Origin: an uncultured Clostridia bacterium
GTDB taxonomy: Bacteria; Bacillota; Clostridia; Christensenellales; CAG-314
Direction: 5' to 3'
Assembly (NCBI GenBank): GCA_947630455.1
Contig: CANRHP010000002.1
Location: forward strand, 29,544 to 93,543
DNA length: 64,000 bases
The translations under genes and the position numbers were made by a program. Every line of letters begins with the position of its first letter. The first letter of the stretch is position 1. Shown piece after piece: positions 46,160-58,736 of this stretch. The notes below the pieces were generated by a model. It was not told the origin of the DNA. It did no database searches and was given only the letters and a program-made list of their open reading frames with translations.

Positions 46160-48169
46160 TTATGCAAGCGGCAGCGTTGCGGAAAAGATCGTAAAATTAT
46201 CCTTGCGTTCATACGTCAATTCCCCATGCATTGTCTTGATCGCGTTCTTTGCCAAAAACAGACCCAGTCCGGAGTTGTTTTCGGAGGGATTGCCCGAAAC
46301 GAACGGGGCAAAGACATTTTTATCGGTAGTAATTCCCTTCCCGTCGTCTATGACGTCGAGGCGGCATACCCCCTTGTGTTTGACGGCGGACACAGTTAAA
46401 TGCGAACAAAACGCGTGTTCGATCGCGTTCATTACCAAATTGAGTATCACGCTTTCCAAAGCAATTTTTTTTGCATATACGTTTAATATTTCGGGCAGCA
46501 CAACCGTCAGAACAATTCCGTTTGCTTCGCAGTCGGGGCGCAAATCGTTTGTTACGCTTTGCACGATCTGACTCAAGTTTATCACCTCGGACTGTTCCGC
46601 CACGTAGTTTTGCTTGTTGTACTTTCCCAAATCGGCAAAGTCTTTTTTCAGCTCCGCATTTTTTTGTAACAAGTAATCCACCTTTGAGACCAATTCGGGC
46701 TCGGATAGATTTTGCCGCAGATCCGTCAGAGAATCGTTCATCCCGACGACGGTCCTTTTCATATCATGGCTCACATACAGCAAGATCTTATCCCGTTCGG
46801 CAATAACATTCTGCAGGCTTTGAGTCTGCCGCTCGACCTCCTGTTCCAGATTGGTCGTAAGATAGCGATTGTGTACTTCTGCAGAGGCAAATTCGCGAAG
46901 TCCCAACACAAGCGTGATCCCCAGCGCCCCATAACACAACCAAAACGCCGGAGAAAACATGATCAATGGGATCGGCTGAGTCGCAAACAGAGCCATAGCG
47001 GTCAAAACGCCTGCGATTATCGAATTGAGGCGCAGTCCCAAGGGCTTATTTTGATATACGTCCCATATGGTAGACGAATAGATGACAACAATGCAGGCAA
47101 ACACCAGGACGATATAGGTATAGCAAACAGCGGTATAAGCGGCTATGCTCGTGCAAAAGGGGGACAGAAATGCCGATACGGTTGCGGTAATCGCGGCAAT
47201 GCTTGTCAAGTACAAAACCGGGACTTTTCCTATTTTTTTCGGAAGATACAGCGTCGCGGCAAAGAGAATAAATCCAACCGAAAAACGTCGCATTCCAAGC
47301 AGAAAGTACGGAACGGTCGTATAACCGAACAACATATACGTTGAAAACAGCACCGAAAAAATTCCTGCGGCAAACAGTAGCTGCGGAATGAAGGAAAAAG
47401 ACCGTTTCAAAATACATATCAAAAGAAACAACAGCAGCGTAACCGCTCCGAGGATAGCGCCGATCAAAAGGACGGAGCGGTTCTCATTGACGGCTCTGTG
47501 TACTGCCGCGTCTTCCCCGATCAAAACGGGTCCCATAAATCCCACAAAGTTATCGTTGTCCGCCTCGTAATGGATTGTCACTCTGCATTCTCTTGAATAT
47601 TTACCTTCAGAGGAAATAGGTATATCTATAAATAAAGGCTCCGTTGCCGTTTGGTGCAGGACGGTGTCGTCAAATTCAGATGGCGATGAGTAATTGATAT
47701 AGTAGTTGATATTGTATCTGTCTATCGCGCCTACGTATTCTTCATTTTCGTACTGCACAAACACGCTGCATGCGGCATATACGGGAGGGATGTACATTGT
47801 CAGGTGCCAATTTCCGTCCGGCTGCAAAAGCCGGTTCAAGCTTTCCTTTTCTGCCCATTCTTCCGTCGTCAAAGTGTCTATAAAAAATTGGTACGTTCCC
47901 CGTTTCGCAGGCTTTGCGCCCTCGTTTTCATTGGATACGACATTGTTAAGCTCCGCAAATTTATTGGGAAGATAGTTGAACGCCGTCATTTCCATCACGC
48001 CCTTCACGTCTGCAATGGAAACGGTGTTGACCGAAACGCCCGCAAGCTCTTTTGTGCGTACGGGCGTCTCCGCTATGGCGTTCTGCCCCGTAAACAGCAA
48101 AACGAGTGAAAATGTCAGGCAGATAACAAACAAACCTACCAACACAAGCACGTTTCCTACTTTTTTCAT
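46160..48169 (-). CDS. Sensor histidine kinase with extracellular domain and 7-TM module (7TMR-DISM type)
   Basis: 669 aa. A signal/anchor and a ~230-aa ectodomain are followed by seven hydrophobic helices. HisKA 'LLYVSHDMKRTVVGM'. HATPase 'IDDGKGI...NSGLGLFLAKNAI'. Confidence 0.88.
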   Translation of the reverse strand: MKKVGNVLVLVGLFVICLTFSLVLLFTGQNAIAETPVRTKELAGVSVNTVSIADVKGVMEMTAFNYLPNKFAELNNVVSNENEGAKPAKRGTYQFFIDTLTTEEWAEKESLNRLLQPDGNWHLTMYIPPVYAACSVFVQYENEEYVGAIDRYNINYYINYSSPSEFDDTVLHQTATEPLFIDIPISSEGKYSRECRVTIHYEADNDNFVGFMGPVLIGEDAAVHRAVNENRSVLLIGAILGAVTLLLFLLICILKRSFSFIPQLLFAAGIFSVLFSTYMLFGYTTVPYFLLGMRRFSVGFILFAATLYLPKKIGKVPVLYLTSIAAITATVSAFLSPFCTSIAAYTAVCYTYIVLVFACIVVIYSSTIWDVYQNKPLGLRLNSIIAGVLTAMALFATQPIPLIMFSPAFWLCYGALGITLVLGLREFASAEVHNRYLTTNLEQEVERQTQSLQNVIAERDKILLYVSHDMKRTVVGMNDSLTDLRQNLSEPELVSKVDYLLQKNAELKKDFADLGKYNKQNYVAEQSEVINLSQIVQSVTNDLRPDCEANGIVLTVVLPEILNVYAKKIALESVILNLVMNAIEHAFCSHLTVSAVKHKGVCRLDVIDDGKGITTDKNVFAPFVSGNPSENNSGLGLFLAKNAIKTMHGELTYERKDNFTIFSATLPLA

Positions 48170-48852
48170 AATACCTCTCCTGTAAAGCAGTAACCCCTGT
48201 TAAATTCGGTGCGGATTATATCGCTTTCGGGCATAGCGGCTTTTAGTTTTCTGCGCAGCGATGACAAATGCGTTCGTATAGTTGTGGTGTGCAGACTTGG
48301 CGCACACCAAATTTTTTCATAAATTTCGTCCGAAGTAAAATATTGACCGCGGTTTTTTACCAAAAAGAATAAAATGTTGAATTCGGACGGTGTAAGCGAA
48401 ATGGGCATATTTTTATATTTTACGGTACGTGTGTTGGCGTCCACGGAAAAATCCCCGAAAACTTCTATTGCGTCCGCTTTGGGTAAAAGCCGCATTGCGA
48501 TATGCGTTTCCAAAAGGCGCATAGAACAGGGCTTTATCACGTAATCGGTCGCACCCGAGGTAAGCCCCGTGAGAATGGTGTCCTCACTGTCCAAAGAGGA
48601 CAAAATAATTACAGGCGGCAATTCGGGAAATGCGCTGAAAAGCTCTATCCCCATGCTGTTTTTGAGTATCAGATCCAACACAACAGCGTCGAAGTCCCCC
48701 TTCTCTGTCAAAAGCTCGACGGCTTCTTCCACGTCAGACGCTGTATAAACGGCATTTGTGGGAGAAAAATATGCGATCATTTCCTTTTTTAATTTTTCAT
48801 CGTCCTCAATAAACAGCAGATTTCTTTCGTAAACAGTATAATTCATATGCAC
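48166..48852 (-). CDS. OmpR-family response regulator
   Basis: 228 aa. Receiver domain ('LLFIEDDEKL', phospho-Asp 'AVVLDLIL', 'DYVIKPC'). Winged-helix output domain ('LTPSEFNILFFL...IRTHLSSLRRKL'). It overlaps the kinase gene by 4 nt. Confidence 0.92.
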   Translation of the reverse strand: MHMNYTVYERNLLFIEDDEKLKKEMIAYFSPTNAVYTASDVEEAVELLTEKGDFDAVVLDLILKNSMGIELFSAFPELPPVIILSSLDSEDTILTGLTSGATDYVIKPCSMRLLETHIAMRLLPKADAIEVFGDFSVDANTRTVKYKNMPISLTPSEFNILFFLVKNRGQYFTSDEIYEKIWCAPSLHTTTIRTHLSSLRRKLKAAMPESDIIRTEFNRGYCFTGEVL

Positions 48853-49070: not shown

Positions 49071-52000
49071 ATGACCACAAAGAAAAGATATTTCACAGCA
49101 ATACTCATTGCTGTTGCAGCATTGTGCCTTTTGGCGGGCACATTGTTTTTTAATACTGCCAACGCGAGCAACAGTGCAAGCGGAACAAATACCGCAGATG
49201 AATGGAAAGGTGCGCAAACCACAGGCAATCTCATTTATTACACCGATAACAATTCCAGCGGTAAGTCTAAAAAAACTTTGGCAGATTTTGGCTGGCAAGG
49301 TCTTGGCAATGTTGACCCATATGCGTTACGCTACAATCACAGTGATGTTGGTTTAGGAAATTCGAGTTTTGGCTGGGTCATACATGCAAACACGAATGAT
49401 GGTCTTGGTAACGATAATTACACCGGCGGTGTGTGGTACACGATCACGCTTTCCGAAGCAGACAGGGTCAAAGCCAATAAGGGGGATTTGACTATTTCTG
49501 CATCCTCTGTAAACTGGCACCAAACATCGTCAGGTATTCACGCTCGTTTACAGCTGATTTTTTACGATGCCGCTGGTTCGGAAATTGCGTCAAAAGATCA
49601 TAGCCGGTTTCTTAATATCTTCCAAAATACAAATCCGGTAAATCTATCTATATCCGATTACAAAGTTCCTGCGAACACGGCGACGATACGTTACTATATT
49701 TCCAATAATAATAGCTTAGCAGGAAAGCCCTCTATTGGTGCTTTGACATGTACTCTTACCGACAAAACAGCGCCTGCGGTTACGGGTAATGTTTTTTTGG
49801 AAAAGACGAACGTTGCGGACAGCAACAATAATATTGTCGTTGCGGGCAACACGATAAAATACAGCGTAGAATTTAACGAAAAGGTAAGCATTACTGCCAA
49901 CGGCACGGCGAATATCACGTTAAACGGAAACGCTTTTGTTTCTTCAAGCACCGCTGAACTCGTTACCGAAAACGGTAAAAGCAGGGTTTGTTACACGTTC
50001 ACATTGCCCGACAAAAACGAAAACGGCGAGGTAAAATTTTCCTCCGTTTCGGGGCTTGCCGTCAAAGACGAGGCGGGCAATGCCTATACTTACAATAACA
50101 GCGGCCTTTCCGCCCCGACCTTGCAATATTACAGGGCAATGACCGTCTCTTCGAGTTTGACACATCTGAACTTTTCGGGCGGAGGAAAGGCGACGTACAA
50201 TACCAACTATTCGGCAGCTTTGTCGACGGTGCGCGGCTATAACCTGCCGAATTCCATCACCGTCAAAGTGGGCGGCAGTACGCTTGCGCAGGGCAGTGAC
50301 TATACCTACAACTCCGGGACGGGCGCGATCACGATTACCGGCTCCAAGATCACGGACGATATTGTCATCAATGCGTCGGGCGTTGCAAAGAAAATTGACG
50401 TCACATTGAACCCGCAAAGCGGTTTCGGCGGAACGGACAAAGTGACGGCGACTTTCGACAGCGCAATGCCTGGCGTGGTGGTGCCGACGCGCACGGGCTA
50501 CACCTTTGACGGTTACTACACGCAAGCCGACGGCGAAGGCGTGAGATATTACGACGCAAAAGGACAAAGCGTTAAAAGTTGCGATTTCGTAGATGCGTTG
50601 ACCCTGTATGCGCATTGGGTCGCACATACCTATACGATAACATTTAACAAAAACAAACCCGGAAACGCAAGTGAGGATGTGCAGGGAACGATGTCCGATG
50701 TTCCGCGCACCTACGACGACGGTAGCAAAGCTCTGCCGAAAAACGGCTTTACGCTGACGGGCTGGACCTTCCTGGGCTGGGCAACGAACGCACTAGGCGG
50801 ATCGGTTACTTATGATAACGAAAAAGCGGTACAGAATCTGACGGATAGAGATGGCGATACGTTCACACTTTACGCCGTATGGAGGGCAAATACCTACACA
50901 GTAAACTATCATTCCAACAAGCCTTCGGGCGCGAGCAGCGAGGTCGTTGGTGCGACCAACGAGTCATCGCACACCTACGACGTGCAGAGAGCGCTTACTA
51001 CTAACGGCTTTTCGCTCACTGGTTGGACCTTCCAAGGCTGGGCAGCGAGCGCCGAAAGCAGCAATATTGTGCATAGAAACGACGCGTCGGTCAAAAACCT
51101 TACGGCAGTGGACGGCGCCACAATCCACCTTTACGCCGTATGGACCGCAAATACATATACAATAAGGTTTAACGAAAACAAACCTAAAAATGCAAGTGCG
51201 AATGTGCAAGGAAGCATTTCCGATGTACCGCGCGTTTACGACGACGGCAGCAAAGCTTTGCCGCACAACGACTTTACGCTGCATGGCTGGACCTTCCAGG
51301 GTTGGACAACAAGTGTAGCAAGCGACAGCGTAACTTACACAAACGGTCAACCGGTGCAGAATTTGACGGAGAAAAATGACGAAACAGTCACGCTTTACGC
51401 CGTATGGAAGGCAAATTCGCACACGATCACCCTCAACGCAATGGGCGGTACCAACGCGGGCGCGCTCACGGCAACCTTTGACAGCGCGCTTCCCGGTATC
51501 ACTCTTCCCGAGCGACACGGCTACAATTTCCGCGGTTATTTCAATTCGGAATCGGGCGGCGAGCAATATTACAAGTCGGATGGTACTGCGGTTGACAATA
51601 AAACCTTTACGATAGATGACAACATTACGCTCTATGCTCAGTGGACGCCCATCACTTATACGATCCGTCTGTACAGCGAGGGCAAATATATCAAGGATAT
51701 TACAGGCGTCGTATTCGGCGTGCTCAATTTGCCCGCGGCGGAAACGTGCGGTCTCTCACGGAAGAATTTTGATTTTGTCGGTTGGAACATATATGATGAA
51801 CAGAACTGGGCAATGTACCATGCCGACACCCTCTATACTACCGGACTTACCGGCGAGCAGGGCGGAGTTGTGGTGCTGTATGCGGCATGGCAGGAAAAGC
51901 CTATCCACTCTTTGTTCTACGACGCAAACGGAGGCTTCGGAGCCCCTGCAACAGAACAGCTGCACGAGGAGGAAGAGATCACTCTTTCGGATGTCCTTCC

Positions 52001-55000
52001 CGCCAAAGACGACCACACCTTTGTGGGCTGGGCAGTGACGGCGGAGGCAACAGAGGCGAAATATTCCCGCGGCGATAAGTTTACCATGGGCAGCGCTGCC
52101 GTAACCTTGTATGCTGTGTGGAAGCACAATCCGTCCTTTACATACAATGCCAACGAGGGCACCTTTAACTACAACGTTGCGACAACTTATCCTGCGCCGG
52201 AGTCGTTGATTAAGATTACGGAAATGCAGCCCGTTCGTACCGGATATGAATTTATCGGTTGGGCTGCAGACAAAGACGCCGAAAAGGCGGATTATAACAG
52301 CGGCGACAGCTTTACAATGCACGACGAAGATATCGTTCTTTATGCCGTATGGAAACGAAATGATTTTACCGTTTTCAAAAATATAGCGGATGGTTACGGC
52401 GTTTCGGGGCTTAAGGACAGCTATTCCTACGGCGATGACCTCAAATTTACCGTTAGCGGCGAATATCCCAAGGTGTATATCAACGGCACGCTTGTTTCTC
52501 TCGACGAAGATGGATACTATTCGTTCAAGGTCACCGGAAATATCTCCGTCACCGTTGTCGATGTTTCGTCGCTTGTTCTACTGTATTCGGCGAACGGCGG
52601 CGAGGACGCTCCGACGGACGAGACTATTTATTCCATGGGCAAAGAGGCAACCGTTTCGGAAATCGCTCCCGTGCGTTTGGGCTATACGTTCTGCGGTTGG
52701 TCCGACAACAAAAACGCCGAAGCGGCAAACTACAATGCGAAAGACAGTCTTACTTTTTCGGATAAGGACATGACCCTGTACGCGGTATGGCGCGCCAACT
52801 CTTATACGGTCACCTACAACGCGGCGGGCTGCGCAGGCACGATGCCGAGCAATGTTTATACTTACGGGACCATCGGTACCCTTTCGGAAAATGCGTTTGA
52901 AAGGCAAGGCTTTATCTTTGTCGGTTGGGCGCTTTCGGAGGGCGGAGAATGTCTGTTTGCAGACGGTGACGAGGTTTTGAATCTTTCGGTCAACGACGGC
53001 GACGAAGTCACACTCTATGCTGTCTGGGAACAGCTGAAAACCTTGATCACGTTTGATTCGAACGGCGGCGGCGGTGGAAGTGCAAATCTTTCGGTAGGTT
53101 ACGGCGAAACTCTTCCCGCAAGCGGGTATATGGCTCCCGTACGCAGAGGCTATACCTTCGCCGGCTATTATACGCAAAAAGGCGGCAATGGAGATAAGTT
53201 GTTCGATGAGAATATGTGCCCCATAAATGATGCGGCAAGCAATTGGCACAGATCCGAACAGTACCTCACGCTCTATGCCTATTGGATCCCCACACCGGAA
53301 ACGATCGAGGACACAATCGACACGGTTCAAGACAATCTCAACAAGGCGACAGAGGAGCTTCAATCGGCAATCGACTCAAACCAGACGGATATAAAGGGAA
53401 AAATTTCAGCGTTGGATTCGGCATATCAAGCGGCGGACGAGCTTTTGCGTTCGGAGTTAACGTCGACAGACGATGCACTGGAGGCTAAAATAGCCGCTCT
53501 CGAAAAAAAGATGGAAGCTGCGGATTCCACATTGCAGTCGGCGATCGACGCGGTACAAATAAAATTGGAACAAGCTGCAAAGGATCTTCAAGCAGCAATT
53601 GATGCAAATGAGAAGGATATAGAGGCAAAGGTTGCGGCGCTGGATGCGGCGTATCAAGCGGCGGACGAGCTTCTTCGCTCGGAAATGATGGCGGCAGACA
53701 CTATGATTGACGCCAAAATAGATGCTCTCGAACAAGCAATGCACAATTTGGATTCCACATTGCAGTCGGCGATCGACGCTGTACAAAGCAATTTGGATAA
53801 GGCGGCAAAGGATCTGCAAGCTACAATCGACGCAAACGAGACGGATATCGAGGCAAAGTTCTCTGCGCTGGATGCAGCGTATCAATTGGCAGACAAGCTT
53901 CTTCGCTCGGATATGACGACGGCAGACGATGCACTTGACGCCAAAATAGCCGCTCTCGAACAAGCAATGAAAGGTGTGGATTCCGCATTGCAGTCGGCAA
54001 TAGACGCCGTACAAAGCAATTTGGACAAGGCTGCAAAGAATCTTCAGGCTACAATCGACGCAAATGAGACGGATATCGAGGCAAAGTTCTCTGCGTTGGA
54101 TGCAGCGTATCAATTGGCAGACAAGCTTCTTCGCTCGGATATGACGACGGCAGACGATGCGCTTGACGCCAAAATAGCCGCTCTCGAAAAAGCAATGAAA
54201 AACGTGGATTCCGCATTGCAGTCGGCAATAGACGCCGTACAAAGCAATTTGGACAAGGCGGCAAAGGATCTGCAAGCTACAATTGATGCAAACGAGACGG
54301 ATATAGAAGCAAAGGTTGCGGCTCTGGATGCAGCATATCAATTGGCAAACAAGCTTCTTCGCTCGGATATGACGGCGGCAGACGATGCGCTTGACGCCAA
54401 AATAGCCGCTCTCGAACAAGCAATGAAAAGTGTGGATTCCGCGTTGCAGTCGGCGATAGACGCCGTACAGAGCAATTTGGACAAGGCGGCAAAGGATCTG
54501 CAAGCTACAATTGATGCAAACGAGACGGATATAGAAGCAAAGGTTGCGGCGCTGGATGCAGCGTATCAAGCGGCAGACACACTCCTTCGTTCGGATATGA
54601 CGGCGGCAGATGATTTGCTTGACGCCAAAATAGAGGCGCTTAAAAAAGCAATGAAAAATTTGGATTTCGCATTGCAAGCGTCGATCGATAACGTACAAAG
54701 AAATTTGGACAGGGCGGCAAAGAAGCTTCAGGCGGCAATTGATGCAAACGAAACGGATATCGAGGCAAAGGTCGCGGCGCTGGAGGCAGCGTACAAAGCG
54801 GCGGACGCACTCATCAACAGCGACATTGCAGGGTTAAAAGCACAGGATAGCGTGCTTGCGCAAAGCATTTCCGCACTCGATTCCGCGTATAAGGCGGCGG
54901 ATGAGGCTCTCTGGAAGGGAATCAGGCAAGTAGAGCAGAAACATGATGCATTGGAGCAGCAAAGCGAGAAAACCGCACTTATTTATATGATCATCAATAT

Positions 55001-55079
55001 TGTCCTCGGTTGCATTGCAGTAGCATTGATTGTCACTCTGGTTGTAAAAGTGGTCAAGAAAAAGAATTCGCAGCAGTAA
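49071..55079 (+). CDS. 2002-aa cell-surface protein: signal peptide, novel N-terminal region, about a dozen Listeria-Bacteroides (InlB B-repeat/Flg_new) modules, coiled-coil repeat stalk, C-terminal TM anchor
   Basis: Signal peptide 'AVAALCLLAGTLFFNTANA|SN'. Repeated 'GYTFxGWxxxxxG...Y.....V....D.TLYAVW' modules. Seven ~76-aa helical repeats. C-terminal 'LIYMIINIVLGCIAVALIVTLVVKVVKKKN'. Confidence 0.9.
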   Translation: MTTKKRYFTAILIAVAALCLLAGTLFFNTANASNSASGTNTADEWKGAQTTGNLIYYTDNNSSGKSKKTLADFGWQGLGNVDPYALRYNHSDVGLGNSSFGWVIHANTNDGLGNDNYTGGVWYTITLSEADRVKANKGDLTISASSVNWHQTSSGIHARLQLIFYDAAGSEIASKDHSRFLNIFQNTNPVNLSISDYKVPANTATIRYYISNNNSLAGKPSIGALTCTLTDKTAPAVTGNVFLEKTNVADSNNNIVVAGNTIKYSVEFNEKVSITANGTANITLNGNAFVSSSTAELVTENGKSRVCYTFTLPDKNENGEVKFSSVSGLAVKDEAGNAYTYNNSGLSAPTLQYYRAMTVSSSLTHLNFSGGGKATYNTNYSAALSTVRGYNLPNSITVKVGGSTLAQGSDYTYNSGTGAITITGSKITDDIVINASGVAKKIDVTLNPQSGFGGTDKVTATFDSAMPGVVVPTRTGYTFDGYYTQADGEGVRYYDAKGQSVKSCDFVDALTLYAHWVAHTYTITFNKNKPGNASEDVQGTMSDVPRTYDDGSKALPKNGFTLTGWTFLGWATNALGGSVTYDNEKAVQNLTDRDGDTFTLYAVWRANTYTVNYHSNKPSGASSEVVGATNESSHTYDVQRALTTNGFSLTGWTFQGWAASAESSNIVHRNDASVKNLTAVDGATIHLYAVWTANTYTIRFNENKPKNASANVQGSISDVPRVYDDGSKALPHNDFTLHGWTFQGWTTSVASDSVTYTNGQPVQNLTEKNDETVTLYAVWKANSHTITLNAMGGTNAGALTATFDSALPGITLPERHGYNFRGYFNSESGGEQYYKSDGTAVDNKTFTIDDNITLYAQWTPITYTIRLYSEGKYIKDITGVVFGVLNLPAAETCGLSRKNFDFVGWNIYDEQNWAMYHADTLYTTGLTGEQGGVVVLYAAWQEKPIHSLFYDANGGFGAPATEQLHEEEEITLSDVLPAKDDHTFVGWAVTAEATEAKYSRGDKFTMGSAAVTLYAVWKHNPSFTYNANEGTFNYNVATTYPAPESLIKITEMQPVRTGYEFIGWAADKDAEKADYNSGDSFTMHDEDIVLYAVWKRNDFTVFKNIADGYGVSGLKDSYSYGDDLKFTVSGEYPKVYINGTLVSLDEDGYYSFKVTGNISVTVVDVSSLVLLYSANGGEDAPTDETIYSMGKEATVSEIAPVRLGYTFCGWSDNKNAEAANYNAKDSLTFSDKDMTLYAVWRANSYTVTYNAAGCAGTMPSNVYTYGTIGTLSENAFERQGFIFVGWALSEGGECLFADGDEVLNLSVNDGDEVTLYAVWEQLKTLITFDSNGGGGGSANLSVGYGETLPASGYMAPVRRGYTFAGYYTQKGGNGDKLFDENMCPINDAASNWHRSEQYLTLYAYWIPTPETIEDTIDTVQDNLNKATEELQSAIDSNQTDIKGKISALDSAYQAADELLRSELTSTDDALEAKIAALEKKMEAADSTLQSAIDAVQIKLEQAAKDLQAAIDANEKDIEAKVAALDAAYQAADELLRSEMMAADTMIDAKIDALEQAMHNLDSTLQSAIDAVQSNLDKAAKDLQATIDANETDIEAKFSALDAAYQLADKLLRSDMTTADDALDAKIAALEQAMKGVDSALQSAIDAVQSNLDKAAKNLQATIDANETDIEAKFSALDAAYQLADKLLRSDMTTADDALDAKIAALEKAMKNVDSALQSAIDAVQSNLDKAAKDLQATIDANETDIEAKVAALDAAYQLANKLLRSDMTAADDALDAKIAALEQAMKSVDSALQSAIDAVQSNLDKAAKDLQATIDANETDIEAKVAALDAAYQAADTLLRSDMTAADDLLDAKIEALKKAMKNLDFALQASIDNVQRNLDRAAKKLQAAIDANETDIEAKVAALEAAYKAADALINSDIAGLKAQDSVLAQSISALDSAYKAADEALWKGIRQVEQKHDALEQQSEKTALIYMIINIVLGCIAVALIVTLVVKVVKKKNSQQ
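53300..54930 (+). repeat. Tandem array of seven 228-bp (76-aa) repeats inside the surface-protein gene
   Basis: The marker 'gattcc' recurs at 53523, 53751, 53979, 54207 and 54435, and as 'gatttc' at 54663, giving an exact 228-nt period. The central units are near-identical at DNA level. The outer units are degenerate. Confidence 0.92.
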
Positions 55080-55092
55080 GGAGGTGCATATT

Positions 55093-55821
55093 ATGTGGGC
55101 ATTTCTGCTCAATATTTTCGCAATCGAGGCACAGTATATATGCACTGCCGCATTGATATTGATATGTACTCTTGCCGGCGCACATCTTTATTTGATGCAT
55201 ATACGAAAAACCGACGCGCCTCATGCAGCGGATACGAAGCTGTCGGAACAAAATAAGCAGGCTGAGGAAGAACACTCCGAGAGTAAGAACGGCAGTGGAG
55301 AAATCGCCGCCCTGCCATTTGCCGACAAGGAGCTTGCTCGTAGCGAAATTGAATCAGTAAAATTGTCTGATTATCCGTACGAAGCTGCAACAAACCTTTT
55401 GGAACGCGGGCTTATTAAGTTGGAAAACGAGGAAGAGTCGTCAACCGACTCGGACAGTCCTATCGGGGCAGATTTTGAAAAACGCGAACACGTGTTTGTG
55501 ATGGAAGCTCGAAATTTGATTTCCGATGAGGTCGCAGTATCCTTAATTGAAGAAACGGAAGAAACAGTATTATCAACACCGAAAGCAGTTATCAATATCG
55601 ACGCGCTTTCCGAAAACTATCAGGCAAACGAGACGGTCACGTTGAAATCCCTGAAAGAAAAGAAACTTATTGCAACTTCTGTAAATTACGTAAAGGTGCT
55701 TGCGCGCGGTGTTCTTGACAAGCCCTTGATAGTAAAAATGCCGGATTTTTCTGTTGACGCGGTAAAAATGATACTATTGACAGGCGGTACAGTGATTAAA
55801 TTGAAAACCAAAAGTAAATAG
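55093..55821 (+). CDS. Membrane-anchored protein with acidic linker and ribosomal uL15-like C-terminal domain
   Basis: 242 aa from ATG 55093, with an AGGAGG RBS 8 nt upstream. One N-terminal TM helix ('AQYICTAALILICTLAGAHLYLM'). The C-terminus 'INIDALSENYQANETVTLKSLKEKKLIATSVNYVKVLARGVLDKPLIVKMPDFSVDAVKMILLTGGTVIKL' aligns by eye with the C-terminal half of bacterial L15 ('..[37 protein letters not shown]'). Confidence 0.65.
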   Translation: MWAFLLNIFAIEAQYICTAALILICTLAGAHLYLMHIRKTDAPHAADTKLSEQNKQAEEEHSESKNGSGEIAALPFADKELARSEIESVKLSDYPYEAATNLLERGLIKLENEEESSTDSDSPIGADFEKREHVFVMEARNLISDEVAVSLIEETEETVLSTPKAVINIDALSENYQANETVTLKSLKEKKLIATSVNYVKVLARGVLDKPLIVKMPDFSVDAVKMILLTGGTVIKLKTKSK

Positions 55822-56016
55822 GAACAGCATGCGATAATTTTTATTTGGTTTGACAACTCGGTTTTCGGGGAAATGTTTTGAATACAAATAAACTCGAGTA
55901 GTAAAAAAATGTATCTTGCCAGGGTCACGCCCAATACCTGTTTACAACGGTTAAAGAAGTCGACGCTGTATATTGAATAATTTAGATTTCTAATGCAACT
56001 ATAAAGAAAACCACAA

Positions 56017-56054
56017 TCCCGATGGCACAAACTACCATCGGGACTTTTTGTTTT
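56017..56054 (+). terminator. Rho-independent terminator downstream of the surface-protein operon
   Basis: A 9-bp stem 'tcccgatgg'/'ccatcggga' is followed by 'ctttttgtttt'. Confidence 0.75.
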
Positions 56055-56381: not shown

Positions 56382-56457
56382 TGGTGACTCCAATGGGACT
56401 CGAACCCATGTTATCGGCGTGAGAGGCCAACGTCCTAGGCCGCTAGACTATGGAGCC
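56382..56457 (-). tRNA. tRNA-Glu (anticodon CUC), CCA encoded
   Basis: The reverse complement GGCTCCATAGTCTAGCGGCCTAGGACGTTGGCCTCTCACGCCGATAACATGGGTTCGAGTCCCATTGGAGTCACCA folds by hand into a cloverleaf. It has a 7-bp acceptor stem, D stem GTCT/GGAC, anticodon stem TTGGC/GCCGA with loop CT-CTC-AC, and T stem ATGGG/CCCAT with loop TTCGAGT. Confidence 0.88.
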
Positions 56458-56646: not shown

Positions 56647-57192
56647 CTACATTATGGCGCAAATATCGACAGTTTTATCGTAGAGATATGCCGTTTTAGC
56701 CATTTCATAGCTGTTTAGATAGTCTGATTTATCCGTTTTATTAAGCAATACCGGAATGCGGTGGTGATACTCCGCAACCGGCATAGTGGCGGGTTTTGTA
56801 AGAATTATGAAACGCTCGGTGTCTTGACGCTTGCAAAATCCGGCAAGATACAGCACTCCTCCGTCCTTACGCATAAACAAGTGTTTGTTTTTGTCGTTGT
56901 CCCATTCGTAAAACCCGCTGCACGGTATCACGCAGCGCGCGCGGGCAAAGTCGTCTGCGAAAAACGGCTTTTCCGCAACAGTTTCCGCACGTGCGTTGAT
57001 GAGCAGCTGTTTGCCGTACGGTCCGTCAAAACCCCATTTTACAAATTTGGGCAATGCGTTATCCGCGATAAACACCGGCGCTTGCTGCGAAGGGTAAATT
57101 TCCAGCCGCAGCAGAGGCGGAATTTCCTGTAAATTTCGATAAATTTCCGAGATTTCCGCATGTCCCATATCCATTACATATCTTCCGCACAT
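56647..57192 (-). CDS. SOS-response-associated peptidase (SRAP/YedK family), short form
   Basis: 181 aa. It starts 'MCGRY', with the catalytic Cys2 that is the hallmark of SRAP abasic-site sensors. Confidence 0.8.
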   Translation of the reverse strand: MCGRYVMDMGHAEISEIYRNLQEIPPLLRLEIYPSQQAPVFIADNALPKFVKWGFDGPYGKQLLINARAETVAEKPFFADDFARARCVIPCSGFYEWDNDKNKHLFMRKDGGVLYLAGFCKRQDTERFIILTKPATMPVAEYHHRIPVLLNKTDKSDYLNSYEMAKTAYLYDKTVDICAIM

Positions 57193-57422: not shown

Positions 57423-58736
57423 ATGAAAAAAACTTTTACGATAGCATTGGCGGCAATGTGCGTACTTACCATATTGGGTACGTTGTGTTCCTGTGGGATG
57501 GGCGGAGCCGCTTTGTTGGACCAGCCTGCAAGCGCAGAAGCATTGCGTTGGGATGAAAGACAAAGTGAGACCACAAAAAATATTCTTTCTGCGTCCAACA
57601 GTTTTGCGGCTGCCTTTTCCGACGCGGTGTACAAGCAGTTTGGTGAAAAAGGCAGCTTCGCTGTTGCGCCCGTTTCCGTCTATATGGCGTTGTCACTTGC
57701 CGCGGAGTGCGCTTCGGGTGAAACGCGCAATGAGTTGCTCAATGCGTTGGGACTTGATTATGAGGCGCTGCAAAGCAGCTTTGCCACGCTGTACGGCTCG
57801 CTTATCGCAGAGTACAAGGATGACAACAACAAAACAGCCGGCATGTTGGAGTTGTCCAATTCCGTTTGGATGGACGATCGCACGCATGTAAAGGACGCAT
57901 GCATCGACAAGCTTGCAAATAGATATTTTTGCTATCCCTATCGGACGGATTTCGACGGCAACAACAAAGCAGCCAATCGCGCGATACGTGAGTTTGTAAA
58001 GCAGCATACCCACGGACTTATCGATCAGGGTTTCGATTTATCCGAAGATGTTTTGTTTACTCTCATCAACGCGCTGTATCTCAAGGATATATGGAACGAC
58101 GGCGGCAGGGATCTGGGCTTTGCTTCGGGACAGTATTCCTTTGTCAACGGCGACGGCAGCGTCACGTCCACTCCGTTGCTCAGCGGTTACTATTATCGCG
58201 GCAGGGTAGTGGCAACGGAAGCATATCGTCACTTTTTCACTCAAACGGAGCACGGGTACACGCTCAAATTCATTGTTCCCAACGACGGCTACACGATAGC
58301 TGATGTATTCGATGCCGAGACATTGTGCGAAGTCAACGGGATCGACGACTACAAAGCCGACGATGAGGAAAATAAAATTCATTACAGTACGCGCTGCCTG
58401 TTCCCTGAATTCGAAACCAAGTTCGACGAGAACTTAAATGATGTACTGCAAAACAAATTCGGCGTGCACAGGTTGTTTGATCCCTACTCATGCGAATTTT
58501 CCAATCTGACAAACGATGCCGTTTATTGTTGCAAGGTGCAGCACGTCACCGATTTGAAAGTGGATAAGACTGGTATCGAAGGTGTTGCTGTGACAATAAT
58601 GGCAAACGCAGAGTCAGCAGGACCTGACGATTGGGCTGACGTATATGAGGATTTTGTCGTGGATCGCGCGTTTGGCTTTGTACTTACGGACAGATACGGT
58701 ACGATTATTTTCAGCGGTGTTGTGGACAGCTTGTAA
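57423..58736 (+). CDS. Serpin-family protease inhibitor, lipoprotein
   Basis: 437 aa. Lipobox 'LGTLCSC|GMG'. Serpin N-terminal motif 'FAVAPVSVYMALSLAAECASGETRNELLNALG'. Hinge/RCL 'GIEGVAVTIMANAESAGPDDW' and 'FVVDRAFGFVL'. Confidence 0.85.
   Translation: MKKTFTIALAAMCVLTILGTLCSCGMGGAALLDQPASAEALRWDERQSETTKNILSASNSFAAAFSDAVYKQFGEKGSFAVAPVSVYMALSLAAECASGETRNELLNALGLDYEALQSSFATLYGSLIAEYKDDNNKTAGMLELSNSVWMDDRTHVKDACIDKLANRYFCYPYRTDFDGNNKAANRAIREFVKQHTHGLIDQGFDLSEDVLFTLINALYLKDIWNDGGRDLGFASGQYSFVNGDGSVTSTPLLSGYYYRGRVVATEAYRHFFTQTEHGYTLKFIVPNDGYTIADVFDAETLCEVNGIDDYKADDEENKIHYSTRCLFPEFETKFDENLNDVLQNKFGVHRLFDPYSCEFSNLTNDAVYCCKVQHVTDLKVDKTGIEGVAVTIMANAESAGPDDWADVYEDFVVDRAFGFVLTDRYGTIIFSGVVDSL

Follow-up and report, generated by a model that had tools for sequence, protein, structure and literature searches.

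The locus and its expression signals

The window analysed here is a stretch of 64,000 nt from an uncultured Clostridia bacterium of the Christensenellales (contig CANRHP010000002.1, positions 29,544 to 93,543, forward strand). A gene on its + strand (55093..55821, stop included) encodes a membrane-anchored protein of 242 aa with a C-terminal domain resembling that of ribosomal protein uL15. The gene follows that of a 2002 aa surface protein (49071..55079, + strand), which has a signal peptide, nine Flg_new (Listeria-Bacteroides) repeats and a long coiled coil, and ends in a transmembrane (TM) segment (about 54975-55046, + strand) with a KVVKKKNSQQ tail. The two genes look like a single operon.

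The 242 aa gene begins with ATG at 55093 and ends with TAA at 55819-55821. A ribosome-binding site (AAGGAGG, 55078..55084, + strand), read from the sequence, stands 8 nt before the ATG, overlaps the stop codon of the upstream gene, and is also kept in three aligned relatives (L012, L013 and L001). An earlier note on this DNA, made from the letters alone, had given the gene its own AGGAGG site, which agrees with this; its close adjacency to the surface protein gene also stands, but the spacing from the upstream TAA (55077-55079) to the ATG is 13 nt and not 14 nt, one base fewer than the note had counted. The list of open reading frames (ORFs) includes an alternative upstream GTG start at 55084; homologues begin at the ATG instead.

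Downstream of the gene, the first plausible terminator is a GC-rich hairpin with T-runs on both strands (56015..56045, strand not assigned), likely to be the end of the two-gene operon on the + strand. It is listed on the - strand in the terminator scan and was read on the + strand directly from the letters. Apart from this hairpin, the scan for promoters and terminators stayed at background level and is not used as evidence. Rfam and tRNA scans showed no leader RNA near the operon, only a tRNA-Glu downstream. The 242 aa protein was found, identical, in two further metagenome assemblies in ENA (three in total), and an assembly artefact was rejected on this ground.

The C-terminal domain is derived from uL15

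The protein is divided into three parts. Residues 1-40 (55093..55212, + strand) comprise a hydrophobic N-terminus and TM helix with conserved polar residues (E12, Q14, Y15), followed by HIRK, and are predicted to lie N-out, C-in; this part corresponds to a hydrophobic hairpin segment of surface proteins to which relatives are fused. Residues 41-133 (55213..55491, + strand) are an acidic and mostly disordered linker of net charge -14, which includes a conserved SDYPYE..LLERGLIKL motif (residues 92-110). Residues 134-240 (55492..55812, + strand) form the folded domain, in which two acidic helices and a beta hairpin precede a uL15 C-terminal fold, and which carries the family invariants KVLARG and KMILLTGG.

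The resemblance to uL15 is real and far beyond chance. Residues 166-234 (55588-55794) match Pfam PF00828 (Ribosomal_L27A) at 45 bits (E 1.5e-11, cutoff 21.5), covering profile positions 1-71 of 72. A phmmer search of PDB sequences pairs residues 164-234 with positions 74-143 of the L15 proteins of E. faecalis, S. aureus and B. subtilis (E 7e-4 to 4e-3). In an AlphaFold2 model built on 59 family sequences, the predicted local distance difference test (pLDDT) score exceeds 94 over residues 134-240, residues 2-40 form a long, hydrophobic N-terminal helix, and residues 41-90 and 114-124 are disordered; the two acidic helices (136-150) and the beta hairpin (153-168) stand before the Pfam match. The top Foldseek matches in the PDB are all uL15 chains, superposing with a root-mean-square deviation of 1.1-1.8 Å over 71-81 residues at 28-38% identity (probability 1.00). 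The folded basic domain is thus descended from the C-terminal half of uL15.

These results bear out most of the architecture that the earlier note had proposed. It had described a single N-terminal TM helix and a C-terminus of about 70 aa like the C-terminal half of L15, and had called for a profile search and a superposition on L15; both came out significantly in favour of the resemblance. Its view of a co-opted uL15 C-terminal domain on a membrane anchor is shared by Pfam, AlphaFold2 and Foldseek, and its remark that the Gly/Arg-rich N-terminal half, about residues 1-70 in uL15, is missing holds, residues 1-133 being TM helix and acidic linker. Its linker is indeed acidic, but the domain start that it placed at about residue 165 is too late, as folding begins near 134.

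By its domain the protein is a member of PF00828, but it is not a member of the uL15 ribosomal protein family (rplO), as the note had also held. The TIGR01071 (rplO) model scores 38.9 bits, below its cutoff of 77.95, and is matched only at profile positions 70-143 of 144; the N-terminal half is absent; and the gene is outside a ribosomal operon. In the spc ribosomal protein operon, rplO normally lies between rpmD and secY. The neighbours of the 242 aa gene are instead the Flg_new surface protein, a two-component system, tRNA-Glu, SRAP, serpin and ComEC genes. The protein shares with uL15 a C-terminal alpha/beta domain homologous in sequence and structure (VNxD, KVLxxG, FSxxA and GG in common) but differs in its membrane anchor and acidic linker, in the extra helices and hairpin ahead of the domain, and in family-specific invariants, namely the R of KVLARG and the KM of KMILLTGG. 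The domain in this family has a net charge of +6 to +7, compared with about 0 in genuine uL15, and relatives are fused to surface proteins.

A large family with a portable central domain

A search of 5.8 billion proteins returned 118 relatives, all with PF00828 and most of 365-415 aa; where a database name is given, it is 'uL15 family ribosomal protein'. At least 505 species-level genomes encode a relative in a scan of one genome per GTDB species, and their record titles are mostly uncultured Clostridia, Christensenella/Christensenellaceae, Borkfalkiaceae and Coproplasma, with some Bacilli and Anaeroplasmataceae; gut Clostridia of the Christensenellales type make up most of them. Alignment of the family shows a common plan: first a hydrophobic N-terminus with K/R behind it, next a variable linker that is acidic or rich in Pro, and then a conserved, basic central domain of about 125 aa (RYxKSFxAKL...SW...GR...RGK...). 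The motif PYDT..L..R.LIK comes after it, then another acidic stretch, which contains helices (V.A.EV..L..DE.A), and last the uL15-like domain, in which N, D, KVLARG, K, S and KMIxLxGG are invariant.

The 242 aa protein has the anchor and K/R (HIRK), the PYD motif, the acidic helices and the C-terminal invariants, and matches full-length members at E 1e-83 to 1e-60. The NCBI set named 'uL15 family ribosomal protein' (365-415 aa, from metagenome-assembled genomes (MAGs) of Clostridia and Anaeroplasmataceae) is the same family, with 60-75% identity in the close clade. Its full-length members have the anchor, PYD motif, helices and C-terminal domain in common with the protein of the window, which differs in lacking the central domain of about 125 aa. 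The literature searched on uL15-family membrane proteins, PF00828 and Christensenellales giant surface proteins contained nothing relevant to a function of the family, which is unnamed and unpublished; the 242 aa protein is one of its truncated members.

Neither Pfam nor NCBIfam has a model for the central domain, and the one match is sub-threshold: a single copy (in P0149) scores 23.8 bits to PF08818 (DUF1801), below the cutoff of 27.2. A sequence profile of the domain had no match among PDB sequences even at E 10. Its AlphaFold2 model (pLDDT 91) weakly resembles DUF1801/YdhG and YjbR (Foldseek probability 0.9-0.98, E 0.03-0.1), the best matches being B. subtilis Fra (PDB 2oc6) and a YjbR structure (PDB 2fki). 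The likeness is limited by TM-scores of only 0.43-0.53, and the central domain of this family differs in being strongly basic and in its occurrence in tandem, in surface protein tails and in soluble DUF2357 proteins.

A profile search of 1.84 billion cluster representatives (clusters at 50% identity) found 3419 proteins carrying the central domain, 1510 of them at E≤1e-30. The best 150 of these 3419 have 2-7 copies each, and 52 of the 150 end in a uL15-like domain. Seven metagenomic proteins (P0143, P0147, P0158, P0160, P0169, P0171 and P0176) are soluble, 1100-1750 aa long and lack a TM segment; they carry 3-6 central domains together with DUF2357 above the Pfam threshold, a second architecture for the central domain. 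These soluble, multi-copy proteins show that the central domain is a portable module. In four stand-alone family members (L039, L081, L090 and L040; 546-851 aa) the domain is duplicated (2 copies). The number of central domains expands and contracts across the family, from none in the window and typically one to 2-7 in others.

Association with large surface proteins

Gene context was surveyed at 87 loci with ORFs called; the 80 loci from genomes are those most similar to one clade member. Within the close clade, a cassette is conserved in which genes for a histidine kinase and a response regulator point away from a giant gene followed by the uL15-like gene, and the gap between the giant (Flg_new/coiled-coil) and the uL15-like gene is 4-17 nt. 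At 19 of the 87 loci, a same-strand gene of 650-2586 aa lies immediately upstream (gap -1 to 66 nt), with a product ending in a TM helix and a basic tail, and a few further loci have fragmented giants upstream. Overall, about a quarter of the 87 loci have the gene of a C-terminally anchored surface protein directly upstream. Giants homologous to the 2002 aa protein occupy position -1 at 17 loci. The surface proteins upstream include unrelated ones, and their ectodomains are of at least three kinds: Flg_new with coiled coil; BspA-type (DUF285) leucine-rich repeats (L063, L080, L088); and one without a Pfam match (L081).

Seven loci (L022, L024, L066, L070, L075, L089 and L091) encode the surface protein and the module as one fused chain, made up of ectodomain, TM, KKKK, a hydrophobic segment of about 40 aa, acidic linker, central domain and uL15-like domain, in this order. 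Among the metagenomic representatives with a central domain are many giants, the largest of 6312 aa, that begin with a signal peptide and have the uL15-like domain at the extreme C-terminus; two fused forms (P0244, P0250) have a single TM followed by RRRKK.

The 2002 aa neighbour and the fused relatives are similar to staphylococcal Ebh and Embp, giant surface proteins of Gram-positive bacteria with a C-terminal membrane anchor, in their signal peptide, their long, repetitive ectodomains and the basic tail that follows the C-terminal TM. To our knowledge, giants of the Ebh/Embp type neither carry nor pair with a folded cytoplasmic module derived from a ribosomal protein.

One MAG may hold two family paralogues (L017 and L025 in CASFJH01; L048 and L082 in CAQTYU01), and in CASFJH01 each paralogue is behind a different large surface protein gene (1618 and 1068 aa).

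Some stand-alone members (L005/L006, L011, L007, L004) lie near genes of translation or RNA metabolism: rpsO-pnp upstream, infC-rpmI-rplT downstream, an EngB-like GTPase gene upstream, and a gene for an S-adenosylmethionine-dependent methyltransferase with a PUA domain (Methyltrans_SAM) alongside, in this last case with Obg about 3.5 kb downstream. These cases are suggestive of a link to RNA or the ribosome but are anecdotal.

Proposed role as a cytoplasmic tail

The C-terminal part of the module is predicted to be cytoplasmic. K/R residues follow the last TM, which by the positive-inside rule would place the tail in the cytoplasm, and the fused forms with a signal peptide and a single TM point the same way; an extracellular tail was set aside on these two grounds. 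The folded parts are basic and their tethers acidic. Across the family, the net charge averages +12 for the central domain and +6 for the uL15-like domain (0 in the C-terminal domains of genuine uL15), and -7.5 and -8.6 for the linkers. The invariants, including the R of KVLARG and the KM of KMILLTGG, are stricter than among true uL15 proteins, and such strict, family-specific conservation suggests one conserved ligand. Both membrane segments have conserved polar residues (E/Q/Y in the small-protein anchor, Y..N in the C-terminal TM of the giants).

The gene of the window appears to encode, on its own and in shortened form, a module that serves gut Firmicutes as the cytoplasmic tail of large surface proteins with a C-terminal anchor. 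The reading we favour, tentatively and at slightly less than an even chance, is that the 242 aa protein represents a cytoplasmic tail that has split off from the surface protein, or an adaptor for it, and presents the uL15-derived domain to a cytoplasmic and probably polyanionic partner. The small protein would be anchored in the membrane and pair with the C-terminal TM of the giant, while its uL15-derived domain, at the far end of the flexible acidic tether, would hold the conserved partner. Most likely this would be a polyanion, namely structured RNA or ribosomal particles, given the ancestry of the domain and the positive charge it has gained. Coupling of the surface protein to the cytoplasm would then act in trans and serve its anchoring, its positioning or a local supply, rather than export of a nascent chain in cis.

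RNA or ribosomal particles are the single most likely candidate for the ligand, although the chance that they are the right one falls short of even. A more specific proposal, which is possible but unlikely, is that the uL15-derived domain, joined in full-length relatives by the DUF1801-like domains, would be a dedicated device for capturing RNA or ribosomes on an acidic tether. Gut Firmicutes would use it to couple giant surface proteins to ribosomal particles or specific RNAs under the membrane, as part of the adhesin tail or, in the window, as a separate subunit. Analogies are offered by the C-terminal tails of YidC/Oxa1 and the eukaryotic ribosome receptor p180/RRBP1 of the endoplasmic reticulum, in which a membrane anchor bears a flexible, charged cytoplasmic region that could reach ribosomes. 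Those tails are basic, unstructured or repetitive, and bind near the tunnel exit, whereas the present protein has a folded domain derived from a ribosomal protein on an acidic tether.

Several points weigh against the favoured adaptor role. About 54 of the 87 loci have no large surface protein neighbour, and 10 of these sit in an rpsO-pnp-X-uvrB-uvrA arrangement, so that the family would either function independently of such a partner or have partners encoded elsewhere. The survey of linkage to giant genes that the earlier note had suggested therefore gives a divided answer, with recurrent adjacency and seven fusions on one side and no consistent linkage on the other. The adjacent fraction may also be inflated, because the 80 genome loci were those most similar to one clade member whose own gene adjoins a giant gene. 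The pairing of the small-protein anchor with the C-terminal TM of the giant is presumed from sequence features. The positive charge would equally fit binding to anionic lipids, and much of the contact of genuine uL15 with rRNA is made by the N-terminal extension that the 242 aa protein lacks.

The lipid alternative has a developed form, which we consider distinctly unlikely. The basic domains would bind anionic lipids or each other instead of RNA, and would work inside the cell as a stopper or a clustering device, by which the membrane anchor of long surface fibres is stabilised or patched. Both folded domains are net positive, the module is tethered to the membrane, the central domain occurs in tandem (2-7 copies), and the associated surface proteins are very long and presumably load-bearing. 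However, anionic lipids would repel the long acidic linkers, which also set the domains well away from the membrane; the strict KVLARG and KMILLTGG motifs across distant lineages suggest a specific partner rather than generic electrostatics; and the soluble DUF2357 proteins carry multiple central domains without any membrane anchor.

The earlier note had speculated that the uL15-like domain could touch ribosomes or rRNA at the membrane and thereby assist its giant neighbour in co-translational export. Descent from an rRNA-binding ribosomal protein, a basic domain on a long flexible tether, recurrent adjacency or fusion to very large secreted proteins and, anecdotally, the position of some stand-alone members near rpsO-pnp, infC-rpmI-rplT or the EngB-like GTPase gene would all be in keeping with this idea, but it is improbable. 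The fused proteins carry the domain at their very C-terminal end, beyond ectodomain and TM, where it is made last, so it could not help with export of its own chain in cis; help in trans is possible. In addition, the N-terminal extension of uL15 is missing, the uL15 site on the mature 50S subunit is already filled by genuine uL15 and is not at the tunnel exit, and most family members have no giant neighbour.

In-frame loss of the central domain

The absence of the central domain from the 242 aa protein is due to an in-frame deletion of 381 nt (127 codons), the junction of which lies at Arg83 (55339..55347, + strand) in a DNA alignment with L012, L013 and L001 and in the protein alignment. The deletion removes exactly the DUF1801-like central domain of the closest full-length relatives (about 70% identity), and an Arg codon is found at both of its borders. 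The acidic linker, which the earlier note had treated as a plain feature, is in fact what remains after loss of a whole domain that close relatives possess. A tblastn search of the 64,000 nt found no second copy of the gene and no remnant of the central domain elsewhere in the window.

At least four other short forms occur in the clade (P0021, P0022, P0026 and P0034), with different deletion borders, and all keep the anchor, the helices and the C-terminal domain. As such variants exist, the clade does not require the central domain. At about 70% protein identity synonymous positions have reached saturation, so identity by region was used in place of the ratio of nonsynonymous to synonymous substitution rates. 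Compared with clade relatives, the anchor is 68-78% identical, the linker 30-50%, the helices 59-71% and the uL15-like domain 77-85%, which makes anchor and uL15-like domain the two parts conserved best. This points to the anchor and uL15-like domain as the probable minimal functional unit, rather than to decay or artefact, given the regional conservation, the independent short forms and the identical protein in further assemblies.

It is quite improbable that the 242 aa protein is a decaying remnant, nonfunctional after loss of its central domain and merely persisting behind the giant gene. It does lack 127 codons relative to all of its closest full-length relatives, and only one cluster member is known for the exact 242 aa form. 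Against this, the deletion is in frame, the ribosome-binding site and start codon are intact, every family invariant of the C-terminal domain is retained in a domain far better conserved than the linker, the other short forms keep the same parts with other borders, and the identical protein is present in three assemblies.

Annotation and significance

The label 'uL15 family ribosomal protein' given to relatives by NCBI, together with the above-threshold PF00828 match, would imply a divergent second uL15, a paralogue entering ribosomes; this can be dismissed almost with certainty, being refuted at the level of sequence architecture, where three defining features fail (TIGR01071 is well below cutoff and matched by the C-terminal half only, a TM helix and acidic linker take the place of the N-terminal half, and the gene is outside the ribosomal operon) and relatives are fused to extracellular repeat proteins. 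The label is misleading, and pipelines for MAG quality or phylogeny that use PF00828 could miscount these genes as ribosomal markers.

Bacterial ribosomal protein paralogues with a non-ribosomal role are rare, and here a uL15 domain has been recruited into a large family. The module is predicted to sit on the cytoplasmic side of very large surface proteins in gut anaerobes, the Christensenellales and relatives, which have repeatedly been linked to host health. The cytoplasmic part of a bacterial adhesin is usually regarded as short and inert. Here, a basic domain that is folded, strictly conserved and borne on a long acidic tether suggests coupling of these surface proteins to some partner within the cell. 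Were that partner RNA or ribosomes, a testable route would open to the way in which bacteria position, or supply, their production of very large exported proteins; and if the domain does capture them, structures of the cell surface would be linked to the translation apparatus in a new manner, through a rare non-ribosomal recruitment of a bacterial ribosomal protein domain.

Neighbouring genes and features

Within the 2002 aa gene, a tandem DNA repeat at 53341-54806 (+ strand) consists of 6.4 copies of 228 nt (85% matches), and can also be read as 3.2 copies of 456 nt. It encodes coiled-coil units of 76 aa (…LQSAIDAVQSNLDKAAKDLQATIDANETDIEAK…) and is likely a stalk of variable length. The giants of relatives range from 650 to 2586 aa.

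A divergent two-component system (46160..48852, - strand) lies on the other side of the giant gene, and is conserved beside it in the close clade. It comprises an OmpR-type response regulator of 228 aa (48166-48852, - strand) and a histidine kinase of 669 aa with HATPase_c (46160-48169, - strand). The pair adjoins the giant gene at close-clade loci L001, L002, L009 and L010, and clusters at positions -2/-3 in 11 and 9 of the surveyed loci. This suggests that the operon of giant and uL15-like genes is under the control of the divergent two-component system.

Between the operon and a serpin gene are a tRNA-Glu(CTC) gene (56382-56457, - strand) and a gene of the SRAP/YedK type (SOS response associated peptidase, E 5e-33; 56647-57192, - strand). 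Two terminator-like hairpins on the - strand follow the tRNA-Glu, at 56353-56324 and 56045-56015. The bacterial serpin (437 aa, Pfam Serpin, E 8e-38) is encoded just downstream of the locus, at 57423-58736 on the + strand.

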